DNA from: Abditibacteriaceae bacterium
Lineage (GTDB): Bacteria > Armatimonadota > Abditibacteriia > Abditibacteriales > Abditibacteriaceae
DNA: 42,211 nt
NCBI GenBank assembly: GCA_031372065.1
Contig: JANMKN010000221.1
Location: 1 to 42,211 of the forward strand
Reading direction: 5' to 3'
This document shows, piece by piece, positions 4,140 through 42,211 of the stretch; within the stretch, counting starts at the first letter, position 1, and every line of letters begins with the position of its first letter. Under the pieces are notes generated by a model. It had not been told where the DNA came from and searched no databases. It saw only the letters and a program-made list of their open reading frames with translations. The position numbers were made by a program, and so were the translations under genes.

Positions 4140-4320
4140 GCGTGAAAACGTCATTTCGTAGCCGAAAATGTCATTTTCACGCCGGAAAAGGCATTACGTC
4201 ACCTGAAAATATCATTTCCATGCAGGAAATGATATTACTTCACCTGAAAATGGCATTTTCACGCAGAAAAAGGCATTAAATCGTGTAAAAATGATATTTT
4301 CACGCCGAAAAAGACATTCT
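4140..4320. repeat. Degenerate tandem array, about 9 units alternating 20/21 bp (41-bp dimer), palindromic core GAAAATG-N-CATTTTC
   Basis: (C/T)ATT anchors at 4152, 4172, 4192, 4213, 4233, 4254, 4274, 4295 and 4315. Confidence 0.85.
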
Positions 4321-4388: not shown

Positions 4389-6035
4389 TCATTCGCTTTC
4401 CTTTTCGTAACACGAATAATAATACGGCGTTTGCGCTTCAAATTCACCCGCGCAGGTGTCCACCATTTTGTAAGCGGGCACTATGCCGAATTGTTTGCGG
4501 CGGGCGCGCACTTCTAATTCCGGTGCGCCGATGAGTTCGGCGATGTTATGGTCGTTGAAACCCAGTTCTTTGGCTTCGCGCAAAAGGTCGGGCGTCAGAT
4601 CATTCAAATGCAAGCCGCGCAAGCGCGTTTCCATCGCCACAAGGCGCGACAGTTTGCGCAAAAACCATTTGTCCACGTTGGTTAAATCGTGAATTTCTTC
4701 GATCATCATGCCGCGCCGCAGGGCTTCGGTAATGACGAAAATGCGCTCGTCGGTGGGCGTGCGCAAACCTTCTTCGATTTCCATTTCCGAAAGGCGCCCG
4801 GTGCCTTTACCGCGCAAACCGTAAACGCCGATTTCGAGTGAGCGCAGTGCTTTCATCAGCGCGCTTTCAAAGCTGCGGTCAATGCTCATCACTTCGCCCG
4901 TCGCCTTCATTTGCGTGGTGATGCGCCGATCCGAGCCGCCGAATTTATCGAAGGGCCAGCGTGGGATTTTGACCACGCAATAATCCAAAGCCGGTTCAAA
5001 ACAAGCCAAGGTTTTCTTGGTGACGGCGTTGGGAATTTCGTCGAGATGCAAGCCGATGGCGATTTTGGCCGAGACGCGCGCAATCGGATAACCCGTCGCT
5101 TTGGATGCTAAGGCCGAACTGCGACTCACGCGCGGATTGACTTCGATGACATAATATCTGTCGCTGTGCGGGTCGAGCGCCAGTTGCACGTTGCAGCCGC
5201 CTTCGATGCCCAAAGCGCGAATGATTTCGAGGCTTGCGGTGCGCAGCATTTGATATTCTTTGTCGGAAAGCGTCTGCGAAGGCGCGACGACGATGGAATC
5301 GCCGGTATGGACGCCCATCGGGTCGAAGTTTTCCATGTTGCAAATGGTGATCGCCGTGTCGTTGGCGTCGCGCATCACTTCGTATTCGACTTCTTTCCAG
5401 CCTTTGAGATAACGCTCCAAAAGAATCTGGTGAATCAGCGAACGGTCAATACCGGAGCGCACGAATTGCTCGAATTGCGCATCGTTCCACGCGATGCCGC
5501 CTCCGGTGCCGCCCAGTGTGTAAGCGGGACGAATAATCAGCGGATAGCCAACTTCATCTCGGAATTTTCGCGCTTGTTCGACGGTTTCGCAAATCGCGCT
5601 TTCGGGCACCGGTTGGCCGATTTGCAACATCGTTTCTTTGAACAAATCGCGGTCTTCGGCCTTTTTGATGGACTGCAACGGCGTGCCAAGCAAAGTCACG
5701 TTGTATTTGTCCAAAATGCCCGCTTCGGCCAGTTGATAGGCCATGTTGAGGCCGGTCTGCCCGCCAAGCGAGGGCAAAAGTCCATCAGGGCGCTCTTTGG
5801 CGATGATTTGCTCGATAAAGCCGACTGTGAGCGGCTCAATGTAAACCGCATCGGCGGTTTCCGCATCGGTCATAATCGTGGCCGGGTTGGAGTTGACCAA
5901 AACCACCGACACGCCTTCCTCGTGCAGCGAAGCGCAAGCCTGTGTGCCAGCGTAGTCGAATTCAGCAGCTTGTCCGATCACAATCGGCCCGGAGCCGATA
6001 ACCATCACTTTGTTAATGTTTGGATTCTTAGGCAT
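4389..6035 (-). CDS. carB: Carbamoyl-phosphate synthase large subunit, N-terminal half only (548 aa)
   Basis: [60 protein letters not shown]. Ends at [27 protein letters not shown], the end of the oligomerisation domain. Confidence 0.93.
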
Positions 6036-6047
6036 TTTTTCTTGTTC

Positions 6048-6142
6048 ATAGAACGCAAATTACGCAAATCTTCGAGAATTTACGCGAATTTTCTTTTAAA
6101 GATTTGGTGAATTCGCGTTCATGGGTGTAATTCGCGTTCAAT
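6048..6142. repeat. ATAGAAC-type palindromic miniature element (9-mer subrepeats), 3' flank of GxxExxY gene
   Basis: atagaacgcaaattacgcaaat ... gtaattcgcgttcaat. Confidence 0.85.
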
Positions 6143-6143
6143 T

Positions 6144-6527
6144 TCATCGCTTGCGGGCGGTTTCGTAAATCTTGCGGCGAAACTCTGCTTTGGGGCCGAA
6201 GTTAAGCAGGATGCCCAAATCAATTTCGGTAGCTTTCAAATAATTTAAAAGTTGCGCTTCGTGTTGCGGCGCGATGCCGTCGCACACTTTTAATTCAACA
6301 ATCACGCACTTGTTAACTACCAAATCAGCGAAATAATCGCCGATGGACTGCCCTTTGTAAAACACCTGAATTGGCGTTTGCTGCTGAACGTGAAAACCTT
6401 GTTCACGCAGTTCAATCGCCAAAGCGTTTTCGTAATTCTTTTCCAGAAAACCAATGCCAAGCGTATTGTAAACCAGATAAAACGCACCAATGATAGCGCG
6501 CATCACTTCTTCTCTGTCGCTTTGCAT
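6144..6527 (-). CDS. GxxExxY protein (PD-(D/E)xK nuclease-like)
   Basis: LGIGFLEKNYENAL (GxxExxY), ADLVV...IVELK, AQLLNYLK, GILLNFG; 127 aa. Confidence 0.93.
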   Translation of the reverse strand: MQSDREEVMRAIIGAFYLVYNTLGIGFLEKNYENALAIELREQGFHVQQQTPIQVFYKGQSIGDYFADLVVNKCVIVELKVCDGIAPQHEAQLLNYLKATEIDLGILLNFGPKAEFRRKIYETARKR

Positions 6528-6541
6528 TTCGGTTTCCTTGA

Positions 6542-6616
6542 ATAGAACGCAAATTTTCGCAAATCTTTTTATAAATTCGCGTTAATTCTCGAAAATTTGC
6601 GTAATTTGCGTTCTAT
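6542..6616. repeat. ATAGAAC-type palindromic miniature element, 5' flank of GxxExxY gene; contains carA stop codon
   Basis: atagaacgcaaattttcgcaaat ... aatttgcgtaatttgcgttctat. Confidence 0.9.
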
Positions 6617-7737
6617 TTCTTCCCTTTCACCATATCCGCAAAGTCATCGAACAAATGCGCGTTGTCTTTGGGGCCGGGGCAGGCTTCGGGATGGTATTGC
6701 ACCGAAAAAATCGGCTTGGTTTTGTGGCGCAGGCCTTCAACAGTTTGGTCGTTCAGGTTAATATGCGTGATTTGCACATCGTCCGGCAGGCTTTCGGGAA
6801 CGAGAGCGTAGCCGTGATTTTGCGTGGTGATATGCACTTTGCCGGTGATTAAATCTTTCACCGGATGATTGGCGCCGCGATGGCCGAATTTGAGTTTGAA
6901 AGTGTCGCCGCCCAAAGCGCGTCCCAAGATTTGGTGGCCCAAACAAATGCCGAACATCGGCATTTCAGGTTTTTGTTCTTGAAGTTCGCGCACTACATTC
7001 ACTTCGTCGTCCAGCGAACGCGGATCGCCGGGGCCGTTACTCAGCATCAATCCATCGGGTTTCCATGCCATGATTTCCTTCGCGCTGGCGGTGCAAGGCA
7101 AAACCACGACTTCCAAACCGCGCGCGCTCAGGCTGCGCAAAATGTTGTATTTGGTGCCGTAATCGAGAACGACCACGCGCGCTTCGGCATCCAGCGGCAT
7201 TTCCCATTGTTCGGGCGGCGTGTTGGCCTGCCCTTCCTGCCACTGAAACGCCTTTTGTGTGGTCACTTCGCGCACATAAGTGCCGGTGTCGTAAGGCGGC
7301 AGATTTTTGAGCGTTTGCAAGCCCTCAGCGGCGCTATGTTCGGTGGTAATCATGCCGAGCATGACGCCCGCGTCGCGCAATCTTTTCACTAAAGCGCGCA
7401 CATCTATGCCCGCGATGCCGGTCAGATTGTGCTTTTTCAGATAATCATCGCCGGAAATTTCGCTGCGATAATTGGACGGCACTTCGCACATTTCCTTGAC
7501 GATAAAACCTTCCACTTGCGGGCCGAGGCTTTCGCCATCCTGCGAATTGAGGCCGTAATTGCCAATCAGCGGGTAAGTGAGCGCCACCAACTGCCCGGCA
7601 TAGCTGGGGTCGGTGAGAATCTCCTGATAACCCGTCATGGAGGTGTTGAAAACGACTTCGCCAGTCACGCTTCCCGGCGCGCCGATAAGCGTGCCTTCGT
7701 AAACCGTGCCGTCAATTAAGATGAGTAATGCTTTCAT
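6613..7737 (-). CDS. carA: Carbamoyl-phosphate synthase small subunit
   Basis: GEVVFNTSMTGYQEILTDPSY, LSNGPGDP, GICLGHQ (catalytic Cys), GHRGANHP, SVQYHPEA. Confidence 0.97.
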   Translation of the reverse strand: MKALLILIDGTVYEGTLIGAPGSVTGEVVFNTSMTGYQEILTDPSYAGQLVALTYPLIGNYGLNSQDGESLGPQVEGFIVKEMCEVPSNYRSEISGDDYLKKHNLTGIAGIDVRALVKRLRDAGVMLGMITTEHSAAEGLQTLKNLPPYDTGTYVREVTTQKAFQWQEGQANTPPEQWEMPLDAEARVVVLDYGTKYNILRSLSARGLEVVVLPCTASAKEIMAWKPDGLMLSNGPGDPRSLDDEVNVVRELQEQKPEMPMFGICLGHQILGRALGGDTFKLKFGHRGANHPVKDLITGKVHITTQNHGYALVPESLPDDVQITHINLNDQTVEGLRHKTKPIFSVQYHPEACPGPKDNAHLFDDFADMVKGKK

Positions 7738-7776
7738 TTTTCGATTTTTGCCGTCTTAAACGACTCGTTTTCCCTG

Positions 7777-7963
7777 CGGAACTGCTTTAGTTCTCCCGGT
7801 AACTGCTTTAGTTCTCCCGGCAACTGCCTTAGTTCTCTCGGTAACTGCCTTAGTTCTCTCGGTAACTGCCTTAGTTACCTCGGTAACTGCCTTAGTTACC
7901 TCGGTAACTGCCTTAGTTACCTCGGTAGCTGCCTTAGTTACCTCGGTAGCTGCTTTAGTTACC
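7777..7963. repeat. Tandem array, 9 x 21 bp, unit GGTAACT-GCCTT-AGTTACC-TC (7-bp inverted repeat around 5-nt spacer)
   Basis: Units start at 7777, 7798, 7819, 7840, 7861, 7882, 7903, 7924 and 7945. Confidence 0.97.
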
Positions 7964-8001
7964 GAGAGAATAATGGTTATTCTCGCCAAAAATGCCGCAT
8001 T

Positions 8002-9650: not shown

Positions 9651-9726
9651 ATAGAACGCGAATTACGCGAATTGCCGCGAATCTTCTTTAAAAGATTTCC
9701 GTAAATTTGCGAAATTTGCGTTCTAT
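9651..9726. repeat. ATAGAAC-type palindromic miniature element, empty copy; contains pyrC stop codon
   Basis: atagaacgcgaattacgcgaatt ... aaatttgcgaaatttgcgttctat. Confidence 0.9.
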
Positions 9727-11033
9727 TTCTGCCAAATGATCGCTCCGTCCACGATGGTTGTCACCACTTGGCCGATCATTTGGTGGCCGTCGTAAGGCGT
9801 GTTTTTCGATTTGCTCGCCAAATCTTCTTTTTTCACTGTCCAACGCGCCGCCGGGTCGAAAATCGTCACATCGGCGGGCGCGCCAACTTTTAAAGTGCCA
9901 GTCGGCAAATTCAAAATTTTGGCGGGCGCGATGGTCATTTTTTCAATGACTTGCGGCAACGTCAAATGGCCGGGTTCGACCAGATATTTCAGCGCGACGC
10001 CGAGCATAGTTTCGAGGCCGATAATGCCAAACGGCGTGTTGTCGAATTCGCGCTCTTTTTCGTAAGCGGCGTGCGGCGCGTGGTCGGTGGCAATGGCGTC
10101 AATCGTACCATCGCGCAGGCCTTCAATCAGCGCGTCAATGTCTTCTTGCGTGCGCAAAGGCGGGTTCATTTTCGCATCGGTGTTGTAATTCCGGCACGCT
10201 TCGTCGGTCAGCGAAAAATGGTGCGGGCCAACTTCGGCGGTCACTAAAACACCATCGGCTTTGGCGCGGCGAATGGTTTCAACGGCGCCTTTGGTGGTGT
10301 TGTGCAAAATATGAATGCGATTGCCAACTTCGCGCGCGATGGCGCAGGCTTTAAAAACGGCGATTTCTTCGGCGACGCGCGGCATTCCGCGCAAACCGAG
10401 TTCGTTGGAAACCGCGCCCTCGTTCATCACGCCGCCGCCTCTGCCTACTCCAGCGTGGCCGCCGCCGGTGAGCGCGATGTCTTCGCAATGCAGCATCGTG
10501 ACAAGGTCGCAGGTTTTGGCGTATTCAAAACAGCGGCGCATAAAACCGGCGTCTTGAATCGGAAATGCATCATCGGAAACCGCGATGGCGCCGGATGCTT
10601 TCAGTTCGGCCATTTCGGAAAGCTGTTCGTTTTTCGCCGCGACGGAAACACTGGCAATCGGCAAGATTTTCACGCCGTTGCCTTCAGTTTTGGCGCGCTC
10701 CAAAATATCCGACACCACGCTGCGATTATCAATCGGTGGATTGGTGTTTGGCATCACGCCAATTGTTGTCACGCCGCCGCGCGCCGCTGCTGCTGTTACG
10801 CTTTGCGTGTCTTCTTTGTATTCCTGCCCCGGCGTGCGACCATGAACGTGAATATCTATCAAGCCGGGACAAACGATGAGGCCTTCGGCCTCCAAAGTGC
10901 GAAGTTCGGATTGCGGAATGCGGAATGCGGAGCCGACTGCCGACACTTTGCCGTCTTCAATCAGCACATCGCAGACTTCGTCCAAATTTTGCGACGGGTC
11001 TATCACGCGCCCGTTTTTGATGAGAATCTTCAT
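9723..11033 (-). CDS. pyrC: Dihydroorotase (type I, Bacillus-like)
   Basis: PGLIDIHVHGRTPG, MPNTNP, HCED, KMNPPLR, IATDHAPH, SKNTPY; located in pyr operon. Confidence 0.95.
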   Translation of the reverse strand: MKILIKNGRVIDPSQNLDEVCDVLIEDGKVSAVGSAFRIPQSELRTLEAEGLIVCPGLIDIHVHGRTPGQEYKEDTQSVTAAAARGGVTTIGVMPNTNPPIDNRSVVSDILERAKTEGNGVKILPIASVSVAAKNEQLSEMAELKASGAIAVSDDAFPIQDAGFMRRCFEYAKTCDLVTMLHCEDIALTGGGHAGVGRGGGVMNEGAVSNELGLRGMPRVAEEIAVFKACAIAREVGNRIHILHNTTKGAVETIRRAKADGVLVTAEVGPHHFSLTDEACRNYNTDAKMNPPLRTQEDIDALIEGLRDGTIDAIATDHAPHAAYEKEREFDNTPFGIIGLETMLGVALKYLVEPGHLTLPQVIEKMTIAPAKILNLPTGTLKVGAPADVTIFDPAARWTVKKEDLASKSKNTPYDGHQMIGQVVTTIVDGAIIWQK

Positions 11034-18001: not shown

Positions 18002-18027
18002 GAATTGAACGACTTTTATAGCCTTAC

Positions 18028-18139
18028 GCCGGTTGAAACCGACGTCTATAAGAGCCAAGGCCACCGTCGTGGCCTCAAAATGGATGTTGGGAGCCTGCGA
18101 AGGCAGGCTTTGCCCTGCCAGACACCGGTTTCAACCGGT
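18028..18139. repeat. REP/REPIN-like doublet (two inverted ~48-bp units, each ending in a hairpin)
   Basis: gccggttgaaaccgacgtct..aggccaccgtcgtggcct-N16-agcctgcgaaggcaggct..agacaccggtttcaaccggt. Confidence 0.7.
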
Positions 18140-18302
18140 GAAAGACAAACCCGCATCACTGATTACAAAGCGCATAACGTGAAGCCTTCGCCCTGTTAGT
18201 GGCTATACAACGTTTCCGACGATGTTTTTGTCGCAGAGACTGCCTCGCCACTTGTCTACTTCTACCAATTCATACCGTGTAGTCGTCTACGCAGCGTCTG
18301 TG

Positions 18303-18755
18303 CAGGCTCACGTGTTTTGTGCATCTGGTCATGTAAATCCTATATATGCTTATGTAATTCGTGTATGTGGTCATATAATTTATGCATGCATTCATGTAAT
18401 TCGTGTATGTGGTCATGTAATTCATGTATGTGCTTGTGCAACGCGTGTATGTGCTTATACAAATCGTGTATCTACTTGTGCAAATCCTATATGTGGTTTC
18501 TTAGTTTTACATAAGCATATACACGAATTTCATGATCAGATGCACGATTTGTATAACCAAATACACGAATTACATGACTACATACACGAGTTACATAAGC
18601 ACACATAGGATTTGCATGACCAGATGTAAGAAATTCATAAGCATATACATGAAAACTATGAGTGTATACACGAATTGTATAACCGTATATATAAATTGTA
18701 TGATCACATATAAGAAACTCATGATCATACACACGAAATATATGAGCCTATACAA
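18303..18755. repeat. AT-rich degenerate 21-bp array in two opposed arms (about 9 units + about 11-12 inverted units)
   Basis: Left consensus TGTGGTCATGTAATTCGTGTA (units at 18324, 18345 ... 18471). Right consensus TACACGAATTACATGACCACA (units at 18520, 18541 ... 18730). Switch point near 18500. Confidence 0.93.
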
Positions 18756-18892
18756 GCTCTGCGTGCCTTTTGGGAATAGATAAGGGGATATTTATATGGA
18801 AATTTACCGGAAAATTCTCTATGCTAACATAGTAGCAGGGCACCATTCATGCTCTATTCAGCGCGGATTCAACCCCCAAGGAGATTTATTCA

Positions 18893-26070: not shown

Positions 26071-26739
26071 ATGAAAACCTCGCGGGTTATATTTCCTCCG
26101 GTGGAATGCGCCGACGACGAAGGATTTTTGGCGTGGGGCGGCGATTTAGAGCCGGAAACTTTGCGTTTGGCCTACCAAAGCGGCATTTTTCCGTGGCCGA
26201 TGGAGAACTCGCCGATTCTGTGGTTTGCGCCGCCAGAGCGCGCCATTTTGCGCCTTGCCGATTTTCACGTTTCGCGTTCGCTCCAAAAACTGCGGCGACA
26301 AAAAGAATGGCGCCTGCAAATAGACACCGATTTTCGCGCCGTTATCGAAAACTGCGCGGCGGCTTATCGCCCGACGCAGGAAGGAACGTGGATTACGCCT
26401 GATATTCAGCGCGGCTACGAGCGCTTGCACCACAGCGGTGAAGCGCACAGCGTCGAAGTGTATTTAGAAAACGAATTAGTTGGCGGTCTTTACGGCGTCA
26501 ATTGGGGCCAGTATTTCGCGGGTGAATCAATGTTTCACCGCGTTACCGGCGCCTCCAAAGTGGCGCTTTGCTTTTTAGTGGAACACTTGCAAAATCAAGG
26601 CGCGACGTGGCTCGATTGCGAAGTGATAAACCCGCTTTTCGAATCCTTCGGCGCCATCGAAATCCCGCGCGACGAATTTATGAAAATGCATAAAACGGCT
26701 TTAGAATCTCCAGCTATTCAGTGGCAAGCATCGGAATAG
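26071..26739 (+). CDS. aat: Leucyl/phenylalanyl-tRNA--protein transferase
   Basis: GGDL..AYQSGIFPW, TWIT, AHSVEV, LVGGLYG, FAGESMFH, ASKVAL. Confidence 0.95.
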   Translation: MKTSRVIFPPVECADDEGFLAWGGDLEPETLRLAYQSGIFPWPMENSPILWFAPPERAILRLADFHVSRSLQKLRRQKEWRLQIDTDFRAVIENCAAAYRPTQEGTWITPDIQRGYERLHHSGEAHSVEVYLENELVGGLYGVNWGQYFAGESMFHRVTGASKVALCFLVEHLQNQGATWLDCEVINPLFESFGAIEIPRDEFMKMHKTALESPAIQWQASE

Positions 26740-26850
26740 AACACAGATTTCATACACGGAAACGGCACGGATTGACACGGTTTCAATTAAAGCCTTTTTC
26801 GAAATCTGTGAAAATCCGTGCCGTTTCCGTGTATGAAATCCGTGTTCTAT
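26736..26850. repeat. ATAGAAC-type palindromic miniature element; contains aat stop codon
   Basis: atagaacacagatttcatacacggaaacggcacggatt ... aatccgtgccgtttccgtgtatgaaatccgtgttctat (about 38-bp near-perfect inverted repeat). Confidence 0.93.
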
Positions 26851-30222: not shown

Positions 30223-31800
30223 ATGGCGGACGAACAAAACACCAACGGCAATTCAGGGCCAACAGAGCGCGCTTCGACACGCAACTCAAAAATTCAAATG
30301 GCCGATGCGCCGTATCCCGAACTCAAAATGCCCTTGGGACACGAAGAAATTTGCGCGATTTTGCCGCATCGCTACCCCTTTTTGCTCGTGGATCGCATCT
30401 TGGAAATTGAGCCGGGTGTGCGTTGTGTCGGTCTGAAAAACGTCTCAGCCAATGAAGAACATTTTAACGGCCATTTTCCCGGTCATCCGGTCATGCCCGG
30501 CGTTTTGATTCTCGAAGCGATGGCGCAAGTGGCGGGCGTTTTGATTCTCGTCACGCGCAACACGCCGGGCGCGCTCAGTTATTTTGCGCAAATTGAAAAA
30601 GCGCGCTTTAAAAAACCGGTGCGCCCCGGCGATCAGGTCATTACCGAAGCGACTTTGCAGGTTTTGCGCGGCTCTTTGTGCAAAGCGCACGTTGTGGGAC
30701 GCGTGGATGGTCAAGTTGTCGTTGAAGCCGATTACACCTTTTTCACGACCAATGGCGACGCGGCGCGCGCTGTGCATTCGCATCAGATGGCAAATTTGCC
30801 GGGCGGCGCGCAATCTATGCCGCCGCTGGTTTCGATTCCGCCCGCTGTCGCCGAAGCCGCCGCACAAGCGCATTCTCAAGCGAATACGCCCGTTGCGCCA
30901 TCAAACGGCGGCGCACCCGCAACGCCTGCGGCCACGCACACCATGAGCGCCACGCGCGCCGCCGCACCAGTCAGCGTTTTGCCGCCGCGCGCTTACGAAG
31001 GGCCGACTTTCGTGCATCCAAGCGCCATTGTTGACCCGCGTGCCGAACTCGAAGAAGGCGTTTGGGTCGGCCCGTTTTGCATTATCGAAGGCAACACGCG
31101 CATTGGCTCTGGCACCGTGCTGGAATCGCACGTTGTCGTCAAGCAACACACCAGTTTGGGCCGTCGCTGCCGCGTTTCGCCTTATGTAGTTCTCGGCCAC
31201 GAGCCGCAAGATGTGAAGTTTAAAGGCGAAGAAAGCTATTTGCGCATCGGCGACGACAATGTGTTGCGCGAAATGGTGACGCTGCATCGCGCCACTGGCG
31301 AAGGCTCGCAAACCGTCATCGGCAACAACAACATTTTGATGGCTTATGTTCACGTCGGGCACAATTGCAACATCGGCTCGAACACCATGATTTCCAATTC
31401 GACGGGCATCGCCGGACACGTCACGATTGAAGATAAAGTCGTCATTGGCGGCTTTGTCGGCGTGCATCAATTCGCGCACGTTGGCAAAATGGCGATGCTG
31501 AGTGCGATGTCCAAAGTGGTGCAAGATGTGCCGCCATTTTGCCTCGCCGATGGCCGTCCCGCGAAAATCACCGGCCTCAACATTCGCGGTTTGCGCCGCA
31601 ATGGTATCAACAGCGAACAGCGCAACCAAGTCAGCGCCGCGTTTAAATATCTTTATCGTTCGGGCCTGAACACCTCACAAGCGCTCGAAAAAATCTACTC
31701 CGAAGTGCCACCCAGCGAAACGCTCGATTACTTTTTGCAATTCGTCGAACGCGTGCGCGAAGGAAGATTGGGTCGCCAAGACGAAACGCCACACCTTTGA
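30223..31800 (+). CDS. fabZ-lpxA: Fused 3-hydroxyacyl-ACP dehydratase FabZ + UDP-GlcNAc O-acyltransferase LpxA
   Basis: FabZ motifs LPHRYPFLLVD and HFNGHFPGHPVMPGVLILEAMAQ; Ala/Pro linker; LpxA motifs VHPSAIVD, hexapeptide repeats, MAYVHVGHNC, VHQF, QDVPPF, GLNIRGLRR. Confidence 0.92.
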   Translation: MADEQNTNGNSGPTERASTRNSKIQMADAPYPELKMPLGHEEICAILPHRYPFLLVDRILEIEPGVRCVGLKNVSANEEHFNGHFPGHPVMPGVLILEAMAQVAGVLILVTRNTPGALSYFAQIEKARFKKPVRPGDQVITEATLQVLRGSLCKAHVVGRVDGQVVVEADYTFFTTNGDAARAVHSHQMANLPGGAQSMPPLVSIPPAVAEAAAQAHSQANTPVAPSNGGAPATPAATHTMSATRAAAPVSVLPPRAYEGPTFVHPSAIVDPRAELEEGVWVGPFCIIEGNTRIGSGTVLESHVVVKQHTSLGRRCRVSPYVVLGHEPQDVKFKGEESYLRIGDDNVLREMVTLHRATGEGSQTVIGNNNILMAYVHVGHNCNIGSNTMISNSTGIAGHVTIEDKVVIGGFVGVHQFAHVGKMAMLSAMSKVVQDVPPFCLADGRPAKITGLNIRGLRRNGINSEQRNQVSAAFKYLYRSGLNTSQALEKIYSEVPPSETLDYFLQFVERVREGRLGRQDETPHL

Positions 31801-31838
31801 GAATGCGGAGTGTGAAATCCGGAATGCGGAATGCGGAA
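31801..31838 (+). repeat. Heptamer array (GAATGCG)x5, left flank of four-helix-bundle gene
   Basis: gaatgcg gagtgtg aaatccg gaatgcg gaatgcg gaa; begins immediately after the fabZ-lpxA stop. Confidence 0.88.
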
Positions 31839-31852
31839 AATAAAGGCGCAGC

Positions 31853-32218
31853 GTGGACAAATATACGCCGTTGAAATTACGCACTAAGACATTTGCTTTG
31901 CAAATCATCGAATTTGTGGATGCCTTGCCACGCAACCGCGTTTGTGATCACATCGGAAGGCAGTTGTTGCGTTCTGGCACCTCAGTCGCAGCGAATTACC
32001 GCGCCGCTTGTCGAGGGAAATCGCCCGCCGATTTTATTGCAAAGTTGGGGATTGTCGAAGAAGAAGCGGATGAATGTTGTTTCTGACTGGAACTTTTAAT
32101 GGAGAGCAATCGGATTTCTGCTGAAAAAGCTGAACCGCTGCGTCAAGAAGCTAATGAATTGTTATCTATAACGATTCAATCCATCAAAACAGCGCGCAAC
32201 AGCGAACGCAGAAAATAA
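31853..32218 (+). pseudogene. Four-helix-bundle protein (23S rRNA-IVP / TIGR02436-like) with in-frame TGA
   Basis: RTKTFAL..QLLRSGTSVAANYRAACRGKS.ADFIAKLGIVEEEADECCF*LELL...EANELLSI..SIKTAR. TGA at 32084-32086 sits at the usual Trp position, and the frame continues to TAA 32218. Confidence 0.88.
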
Positions 32219-32237
32219 TATCAGCATATTTTACTCT

Positions 32238-33443
32238 GTGAAAAACGCTGCGCCCAATTTACTCCGCACTCCGCATTCCCCAGTCCGCATTCTATGGGTT
32301 GCGGGCGATGTTTCCGGTGATATTCACACCGCGCTTCTCATGCGCGAAGTGACGGCGCGGCATCCCGACTGGCAAATGACCGTCGCGGGCGGTGCGCAAA
32401 TGCAAAAAGTGGCGCGCGAAAAGGGCGGCGCGGTTTTAGGCGACACTTCGCACTATGGCGTTATCGGTTTGGTGCCTTCTCTCCTGCTGGTGCCGCGCCT
32501 CTTGAAACTCAAATCAAAAATCGAAAATTGGATCACCAAAACGCGGCCCGATGCCGTGGTTTTATGCGATTGGGGCGCGTTTAACGGGCGTTTGCTGCCT
32601 TTCCTCAAGGCGCAAAAGATAAAGACTCTCTATTATTTCCCGCCGCGCTCGTGGCAGCAAACGGGCGATGGAGGACTCGGCATCGCGCCTTTGGTCAATC
32701 GCGTGTCGACGCCGTTTGAATGGTCGGCCCAGAAACTGACAAACGCCGGTTGCAACGCCGAATGGGTGGGCCATCCGTTGCTCGAAACTGTCAAATCCTC
32801 CCAACCAATTCCCGACTTACGCCGCGAGTTTGGCGCGGCTGAGAACGAAAAACTCATCGCGCTTTTGCCCGGTTCTCGTGCTTTAGAATTGCGCTACATC
32901 GCGCCACATTTAGCGCGCAGTGCGCGGCTTTTGCAAGAGCGAAATCCCGCGCAAAACTTTCGTTTTGTGGTGGCGTTGGCAAACGGCGGCACAAAGCGCG
33001 CGGCACGATATTTCGATGAAAAATTCGAGCTTGTCGAAGGCCGCGCGAGCGATGTTTTATTGGCCTGCGATGCCGCCATTGTGAAAAGTGGCACGGCGAC
33101 TTTGGAAGCAGCGGTGGCAAACGCGCCGCAAGTTGTGGTCTATGATGTGCCCGCCGTTTTGGGATTGCAATGGAAATTAAGCGGCTCAGGGCGTAAAATT
33201 CCCTTTGTCGCCATGCCAAACATCATTTTGGGCCGCGAGTGCGCCAAAGAACTGCTTGGCCCGGCGTGTCGCGCCAAAAATATCGTGCCCGCCTTGGAAA
33301 TGTTGCTGAACAATGCTGCGCACCGTGAGCGAATGCAAAACGATTACGCCATTGTGCGCCGCGCGTTAGGCAGCGAATTGCCGCAAGGCGCCACCGCGCG
33401 CACGGCGGAAATTTTGGAAGAATTAGTTGGTGCCGGGCATTGA
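32238..33443 (+). CDS. lpxB: Lipid-A-disaccharide synthase
   Basis: VAGDVSGD, DWGAFN, WVGHPL, LLPGSR..E, KSGTATLE, AMPNII. Confidence 0.93.
   Translation: MKNAAPNLLRTPHSPVRILWVAGDVSGDIHTALLMREVTARHPDWQMTVAGGAQMQKVAREKGGAVLGDTSHYGVIGLVPSLLLVPRLLKLKSKIENWITKTRPDAVVLCDWGAFNGRLLPFLKAQKIKTLYYFPPRSWQQTGDGGLGIAPLVNRVSTPFEWSAQKLTNAGCNAEWVGHPLLETVKSSQPIPDLRREFGAAENEKLIALLPGSRALELRYIAPHLARSARLLQERNPAQNFRFVVALANGGTKRAARYFDEKFELVEGRASDVLLACDAAIVKSGTATLEAAVANAPQVVVYDVPAVLGLQWKLSGSGRKIPFVAMPNIILGRECAKELLGPACRAKNIVPALEMLLNNAAHRERMQNDYAIVRRALGSELPQGATARTAEILEELVGAGH
32261..32292 (-). repeat. Inverted heptamer array (ACTCCGC/ATTCCGC-type), right flank; lies in the lpxB 5' coding region
   Basis: actccgc actccgc attcccc agtccgc attc, the reverse complement of the 31801 array. 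Confidence 0.8.
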
Positions 33444-35252: not shown

Positions 35253-35484
35253 GGCTTTGGCGTCCGTTTTCCGGCCCCAACGGGTCATACAGGCGGCTTC
35301 GGCGTCCGTTTGCCGAAGCCGCCTTGGAAGCTGGGAAGACTCCGCAAACGGACGCCAAAGCCGCCTTGGAAGCAAGGAAGACTCCGCAAACGGACGCCGA
35401 AGCCGCCTTGGAAGCAAGGAACGGCTCGCAAACGTTTGCGGAGTCTTCCGGGGAACGTGGACACGCGCGGCGTGCGTTTGCGGG
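35253..35484. repeat. 42-bp-period array with units in mixed orientation
   Basis: Forward units at 35312, 35354 and 35396 (gccraagccgccttggaagc..ggaagactccgcaaacggac). Inverted partial units at 35259/35301 and 35433/35475, also 42 bp apart. Confidence 0.9.
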
Positions 35485-42082: not shown

Positions 42083-42117
42083 GTGTTCGATGGCTGACAA
42101 AGCAAATTGCCGACTCA

Positions 42118-42211
42118 AGATTGAGCCTCGGCGATAAGAGATTGAGCCTCGGCGATAAGAGATTGAGCCTCGGCGATAAGAGATTGAGCCTCGGCGATAA
42201 GAGATTGAGCC
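42118..42211. repeat. Perfect 21-bp tandem array (TTGAGCCTCGGCGATAAGAGA), more than 4 copies, runs off the window
   Basis: Identical units at 42121, 42142, 42163 and 42184; partial unit at 42205. Confidence 0.97.

Follow-up and report, generated by a model that had tools for sequence, protein, structure and literature searches.

The locus between carA and carB in the genome of an Abditibacteriaceae bacterium raises the question of whether a small GxxExxY gene and the palindromic repeats that enclose it form one system, in which the gene product spreads the repeats. We analysed the window (the whole stretch of 42,211 nucleotides, contig C161 of the source assembly G000, which comprises 6.14 Mb in 410 contigs and is 94% complete), the remainder of G000, its relatives, and GxxExxY loci from many phyla. 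The features of the window that are relevant to the question are the following:

6048..6616, no strand: whole GxxExxY cassette of 569 bp with ATAG...CTAT arm tips, between carA and carB
6048..6091, plus strand: outer arm of family A, 3' of the GxxExxY gene, with cores at 9/10-bp spacing
6048..6142, no strand: downstream hairpin with a decayed inner end, which reads GCGTTCAAT
6144..6527, minus strand: intact GxxExxY / PDDEXK_3 gene of 127 aa (TIGR04256, PF13366)
6535..6539, minus strand: likely ribosome-binding site AAGGA, as judged from its letters, 7 nt 5' of the ATG
6542..6616, no strand: upstream complete hairpin, in which the terminal TAG (6613-6615, minus strand) serves as stop codon of carA
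6573..6616, minus strand: outer arm 5' of the GxxExxY gene, pairing with 6048-6091
9651..9726, no strand: family-A hairpin without a gene, flanked by pyrC-like and DUF4139 genes, whose TAG is the stop of the upstream gene
26736..26850, no strand: gene-less family-B hairpin, whose TAG terminates the Leu/Phe-tRNA transferase gene

The open reading frame at 6144-6527 was recognised by both TIGR04256 (140 bits) and PF13366 (145 bits), and its neighbours are carA (6613-7737) and the N-terminal carB half (4389-6035), which is where a sequence-only reading of the locus had placed it. This carB gene covers only the N-terminal half of the large subunit (548 aa). The inverted repeat of more than 20 bp that had been claimed around the whole cassette measures 44 bp: the outer arms are complementary at 42 of 44 positions, against merely 65-67% within each local hairpin, and the outer pair therefore defines one unit of 569 bp. 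Hairpins with ATAGAAC...GTTCTAT ends were found at 6542-6616, 9651-9726 and 26736-26850; the other flanking element (6048-6142), for which the same ends had been proposed, has just one true end. The proposed 9-mer subrepeats exist as recurring cores, but their spacing in family A is 9 and then 10 bp, rather than that of a strict 9-mer. The gene-less copy reported at 9651-9726 is a family-A hairpin, as described, and the element at 26736-26850, taken for a variant of it, shares the ATAGAAC/GTTCTAT ends but is a member of the arm family that goes with another GxxExxY paralogue (contig C110). The DNA fold z-scores were -5.9 (6542-6616), -5.2 (9651-9726), -13.2 (26736-26850) and -3.1 (6045-6145), and the TAG at the end of each of the three window elements provides the stop codon of the upstream gene. 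A search of the window against Rfam gave 0 matches. The window also holds tandem arrays: one of 21 bp lies 5' of carA (7749-7979), at a position where the congener G001 has a family-A hairpin instead, and more arrays of 21, 41 and 42 bp are found at 18299-18758, 1449-1664, 4164-4318, 35291-35437 and 42097-42201, some of them as large inverted pairs.

The encoded protein scores far above the curated cut-offs (140 versus 35 bits for TIGR04256, 144.9 versus 22 bits for PF13366), and a profile search of the window gene returned PF13366 as the sole match, with no DDE, HUH/Y1 or serine transposase. PADLOC gave a weak match only (E 0.008), and no solved structure related by sequence was found. A single-sequence fold model was poor (pLDDT 56) and was replaced by an alignment-based model (pLDDT 93.6), in which, together with the alignment, the core fold and the E...D...ExK residues of the PD-(D/E)xK fold were found, in line with the earlier assignment. 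The model matches Cas4, lambda exonuclease, Hjc and restriction-type folds (best Foldseek match: E 6e-4, TM ~0.5; best VIA match: Z 8.8 with 3ijm, rmsd 3.4, 99 aligned; Cas4 6.9, Hjc 5.8), and these matches of a predicted structure indicate kinship at the superfamily level only, without a functional assignment. The residues E29, D68, E78, K80, Q92 and Y96 are conserved at 95-100% (127 sequences), and E29, D68, E78, K80 and Q92xxxY96 constitute the putative catalytic set. With dN/dS values of 0.02-0.20 in nine pairs (three further pairs being saturated), sequence comparison shows the predicted active-site residues to be held under purifying selection.

The connection between gene and repeats is apparent within G000. 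Three GxxExxY genes were recovered by tblastn, namely the window gene and its paralogues on contigs C110 (59%) and C113 (35%), each within different arms, and a search with these arms retrieved 68 clusters: 32 of family A, 12 of family B (an under-count, given 34 ends) and 24 of family C. When the cassette arms are removed, ~30 A, 10+ B and 22 C clusters remain as gene-less copies, and each paralogue thus comes with a separate arm family and solo copies of it. An unbiased census of G000 pointed the same way: among 702 inverted repeats, the families that enclose a gene led to the three GxxExxY genes, to three genes for Y1-like transposases (recognised by eye in translation) and to a few chance spans. 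Several similar hairpin families occur in this 94%-complete assembly without any gene. The family-C gene (C113:3316-3681) lacks the conserved first Glu (E29) and has an internal deletion; the protein looks degenerate, and ~22 family-C solos persist.

Gene plus arms is a family-wide design. The GxxExxY family is very large (at least 7,955 clusters among 7,996 candidates scored), and a gene was found in 38 of the 61 relatives, the other 23 being without a match. From 140 collected loci we removed two duplicates and five without usable flanks, and scored the arms of the remaining 133, which derive from many phyla, as the inverted match between the two flanks (threshold score ≥ 14). Arms were present at 113 of the 133 loci, 20 falling below the threshold, versus 5/592 small genes of G000 (of which three were GxxExxY genes and one was a four-helix-bundle gene) and 0/167 shifted windows. 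A lack of such enrichment had been named beforehand as an outcome that would speak against the proposal. Palindromes of 23-146 bp with ATAGAAC...GTTCTAT ends number 41 in G000 against ~0.6 expected by chance, and a reversed-pattern control gave 0. Chance, or ordinary terminators in A+T-rich gaps, has the A+T richness of these gaps in its favour and nothing else, and is refuted by the palindrome count and the three controls; we give it practically no weight.

The arms also co-vary with the protein. Proteins that are more alike also have more similar arms (Mantel rho 0.35, permutation maximum 0.09, n=116), and the correlation among cross-phylum pairs alone amounts to rho 0.16. Of the 58 proteins whose cores carry G at one particular position, 57 have T or S as residue 9; of the 13 with A there, nine have some other residue, at five positions of the tree (corrected p ~0.04 against a best-column null); the window protein has Met at residue 9 and an A core. 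This pattern is suggestive, though no proof, of residue 9 reading one base of the arm, with M9 as the candidate base-reading residue. At the other two core positions there was no clear co-varying column, or one that reflected a single deep split. A second arm motif was found with at least five hits in 17 of the 38 GxxExxY-positive genomes and in 0 of the 23 negative ones, and, among genomes from outside the own taxonomic family, with at least three hits in 4/14 versus 0/20 (p=0.02), kin not being independent in these counts, while G007 (33 hits) and G013 (18 hits) carry it with no matching gene seen. Similarly, family-A ends occur in the congeners G001 (29), G002 (30) and G003 (8), whose assemblies are 85, 79 and 97% complete, and none of the GxxExxY loci viewed there (4/6, 3/3 and 8/9, respectively) has A arms, which weakens a strict one-to-one link between gene and arm family. 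The proposed pairing of autonomous and non-autonomous elements is thus borne out by a cognate solo family for each paralogue and by a whole-cassette duplication with arm-tip boundaries (see below), but not as a one-to-one relation across genomes.

That site occupancy turns over can be seen by comparing junctions, and filled, empty and replaced sites, the polymorphism that the earlier proposal called for, are all present among congeners. The carA-carB junction lacks the cassette in G008 (34 bp) and G010 (68 bp); directly behind carA, related GxxExxY genes are present in G001 (65%) and G007 (59-60%), the carA-adjacent genes of G000, G001 and G007 having three different arm types; G005 has a solo there that matches its own GxxExxY gene elsewhere; and G002 and G003 have other cargo. 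A conserved-site test recovered three related genes behind carA and a fourth elsewhere. Inspection by eye indicated that, within the family, this junction is a hot spot for cargo, with toxin-antitoxin-like pairs and other genes, and differs in nearly every genome. Duplication has also affected the entire cassette, with the arm tips as boundaries of the copied unit: G001 contains two cassettes that are ~94% identical (by eye, ~505 nt) at unrelated sites, and their homology begins with AATAG and ends with CTATT, with no duplication around it and each copy broken differently. Contig joints lacking 476-503 bp of the cassette were considered as excision products and rejected, since their sides were short and several had letters of other solos between them; no excision intermediates were seen in the contigs.

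The positions that the elements occupy are biased. Upstream neighbours are co-directional in 91 of 101 cases and downstream ones in 82 of 101. Of the family-A solos that could be placed with simple in-house gene calls, 25 of 26 sit between two genes of the same direction (background 1547/2161, p 0.002), and in all 25 the upstream stop is no more than 18 nt away. Among the palindromes of G000, the terminal TAG serves as a called stop in 11 of 39. Such a bias, as well as the related genes with three arm types behind carA, could be read as an intervening sequence at the RNA level: base pairing of the arms within the operon transcript would loop out the gene and preserve translational coupling of its neighbours, and the nuclease would home the cassette into cassette-free alleles of a conserved site, the carA 3' end being one example. 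We consider this clearly unlikely: mismatches in the arms are not enriched in the G.U type relative to the A.C type (175 versus 171, and 67:56), and the missing G.U excess favours action on DNA over action on RNA; solos occupy dozens of unrelated sites and the duplicated cassette two unrelated targets; and the shared carA position can also be explained by inheritance plus arm switching.

At the gene-less sites of the window the picture is similar. The 9651 element is absent in G001 (16 versus 100 bp between the anchors); G002 and G003 have other hairpins in its place, and a ~91% relative has 85 other letters. The 26736 site has unrelated hairpins of the DUF559 or 7-mer type in all three of G001-G003. 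In the opposite direction, 40 congener sites with the family-A pattern were fetched, of which eight were unpairable and two were coding chance matches; inspection by eye of the 30 informative ones, with flanks ~70-90% alike, assigned 13 to family A or a remnant of it in G000, six to another GxxExxY-type family and 11 to sites without a full element. The genes themselves are more stable: the neighbourhood is kept in 15 of 17 pairs at ≥ 85% identity, and at 75-85% it differs in 13 of 23. In a tree of 48 of the 127 rows, the two G000 genes with A and B arms belong to an 11-member clade whose members come from the same taxonomic family (support 95/87), which makes them old residents, and an AU test on the same rows rejects a single clade for the own-phylum sequences (p 0.0006), as transfer or old paralogy could produce. 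Records of plasmids rarely contain the gene (8/72,556), and in phage records it was not found (0/50,697). This residency, the strong purifying selection and the 13 of 30 shared sites are what one would expect if the hairpins were host regulatory elements (mRNA stabilisers or attenuators) selected at operon junctions, and the gene a domesticated maintenance factor. The junctions that are empty or differently filled in congeners, the 23 relatives that have no gene match and the broken copies argue against it, and as a full account it appears very unlikely; it is compatible with mobility of the repeats as a later stage.

A flanking duplication of at least 5 bp was found around 0 of 40 palindromes and one of 2 bp around five of 40; a palindromic TA duplication may lie inside the ATAG...CTAT tips, for which the congeners are too diverged to be read. 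Arms match better within than between elements in family B (9/11) and family C (28/37), and only in 13/27 cases in family A, where the pattern is absent; templated arm copying is therefore only a lead.

Other small genes of G000 share the layout. All five four-helix-bundle (TIGR02436) genes have inverted arms of 7-8-mers; we know of no nuclease motif in such genes. One of this type lies within the window (31800-32293), between lpxA-like and lpxB neighbours, with one in-frame TGA and inverted 7-mer (TGCGGAA) arms, and a TGCGGAA-type 7-mer array occurs at 10884-10931 inside the pyrC-like ORF, where it is read in frame. Both full-length DUF559 genes (L222 on C137 and L223 on C399) have a recurrent C-rich/G-rich hairpin directly upstream, and a hairpin of one such type occupies the 26736 site of G001 and G002. 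The hairpin at 18023-18144 resembles a family that flanks a Y1/RAYT-like gene on contig C5. Since the layout is common to unrelated proteins and the same junctions hold unrelated families, the site bias is not specific to GxxExxY and is probably a matter of tolerance.

These observations bring forward the possibility that GxxExxY recognises the arms and yet is cargo or a caretaker that trims or resolves hairpins, while another enzyme, for instance a resident Y1/RAYT-like transposase, moves hairpins of many kinds. It would account for the occurrence of GxxExxY, TIGR02436, DUF559 and Y1 genes all in or beside hairpin families of their own in G000, for the swapping of unrelated families at the same junctions and for the orphan families. 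The arms, however, carry no GTAG/CGTC tags, the second arm motif is nearly absent from the 23 GxxExxY-negative genomes and each Y1 gene in G000 has its own, different repeat. Orphan repeats are common for RAYT-REP as well, where gene loss and repeat switching are given as the explanation (PMC3686654). On balance we regard the cargo or caretaker role as rather unlikely.

The explanation that we prefer, with a probability of roughly 0.6, is that gene, inverted arms and gene-less hairpins of 75-145 bp form one system in which the protein binds its own cores and cuts paired ends, and host repair reinserts the product. The gene would be expressed via read-through of the host operon, and the protein would bind the repeated, spaced cores of its own arm family on DNA, helix 1 (residue 9) reading the sequence. 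Cleavage would then occur at the arm ends, on a cruciform or paired-end structure. PD-(D/E)xK enzymes normally hydrolyse DNA without strand transfer, which speaks against this reading; in it, host repair would insert the hairpin elsewhere, and on rare occasions the complete cassette, and the piece would survive mainly just behind stop codons, the TAG of the arm being able to end the upstream gene. We infer, in other words, that the protein itself mobilises the repeats. More tentatively, and at odds slightly short of even, we suggest that this represents a new mobilising class: a lone PD-(D/E)xK nuclease of 127 aa whose helix 1, with a retunable base position, reads helically spaced cores, and which excises its own hairpin and seeds populations of it in bacterial genomes without known transposase chemistry, as one of several unrelated small-gene-plus-hairpin systems (with the four-helix-bundle and DUF559 genes) that compete for junctions. 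The system would offer a testable substrate and a job for a very large family of unknown function, and a candidate origin for the many palindromic repeats outside the REP world that lack an explanation. Should the nuclease move the hairpins by itself, this would be transposition without a DDE, HUH or serine enzyme, and a tiny nuclease whose variants read different short motifs would make a compact model of protein-DNA co-evolution.

How does this system relate to those already known? MITEs with an autonomous IS partner have terminal inverted repeats and a gene-less short form. The GxxExxY elements share both, as well as the duplication of the whole unit bounded by repeat tips, and differ in that the cassette is without a DDE transposase and that duplications of at least 5 bp were seen in none of the 40 cases. 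The 23S rRNA intervening sequences carry a four-helix-bundle ORF; in these, as in the GxxExxY cassette, a long inverted repeat within a transcript encloses the ORF in its loop. Unlike them, the GxxExxY gene sits between protein genes, encodes a nuclease, is accompanied by dozens of solos and shows no RNA-strand wobble bias. TnsA requires TnsB/C, and homing endonucleases have one long target, unlike the GxxExxY arms. TnsA, I-Ssp6803I and the Vsr/DUF559-type homing endonucleases are nonetheless precedents for PD-(D/E)xK enzymes of mobile DNA, i.e. members of the same nuclease superfamily that serve mobility (PMC3424549), and the same source lists PF13366 as of function unknown with multiple transfers. 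Cas4 (SSO0001, 4ic1), lambda exonuclease and archaeal Hjc, the latter of similar size, share the fold and the catalytic core with the GxxExxY model. Within the partial literature covered, we found no paper that links GxxExxY or PF13366 to repeats, and GxxExxY was mentioned only in passing as an annotation.

The closest parallel is with REPIN-RAYT (REPtrons, TIRtrons; PMC3116915, PMC3733652, PMC3686654, PMC5581495). Both systems have: a low-copy gene between inverted repeats, which are also found solo as hairpins and, elsewhere, as high-copy inverted doublets; several gene/repeat pairs per genome, with orthologous genes that have switched repeats ('orthoswitch'); orphan repeats after gene loss; and a chromosomal, long-resident way of life, in which the gene is mostly static for long periods while arms switch and solos turn over. 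They differ in the enzyme, which has a PD-(D/E)xK fold in GxxExxY and is an HUH tyrosine transposase in RAYT; in the arms, which are arrays of short cores at 9-11-bp spacing rather than a single tagged palindrome; in the arm ends, which are ATAG and other family-specific tips rather than a GTAG/CGTC tag; and in the duplication of a whole GxxExxY cassette at an unrelated site. By this comparison the GxxExxY/arm system would be a non-homologous analogue of REPIN-RAYT, outside its membership, and as a system it appears to be new and undescribed.
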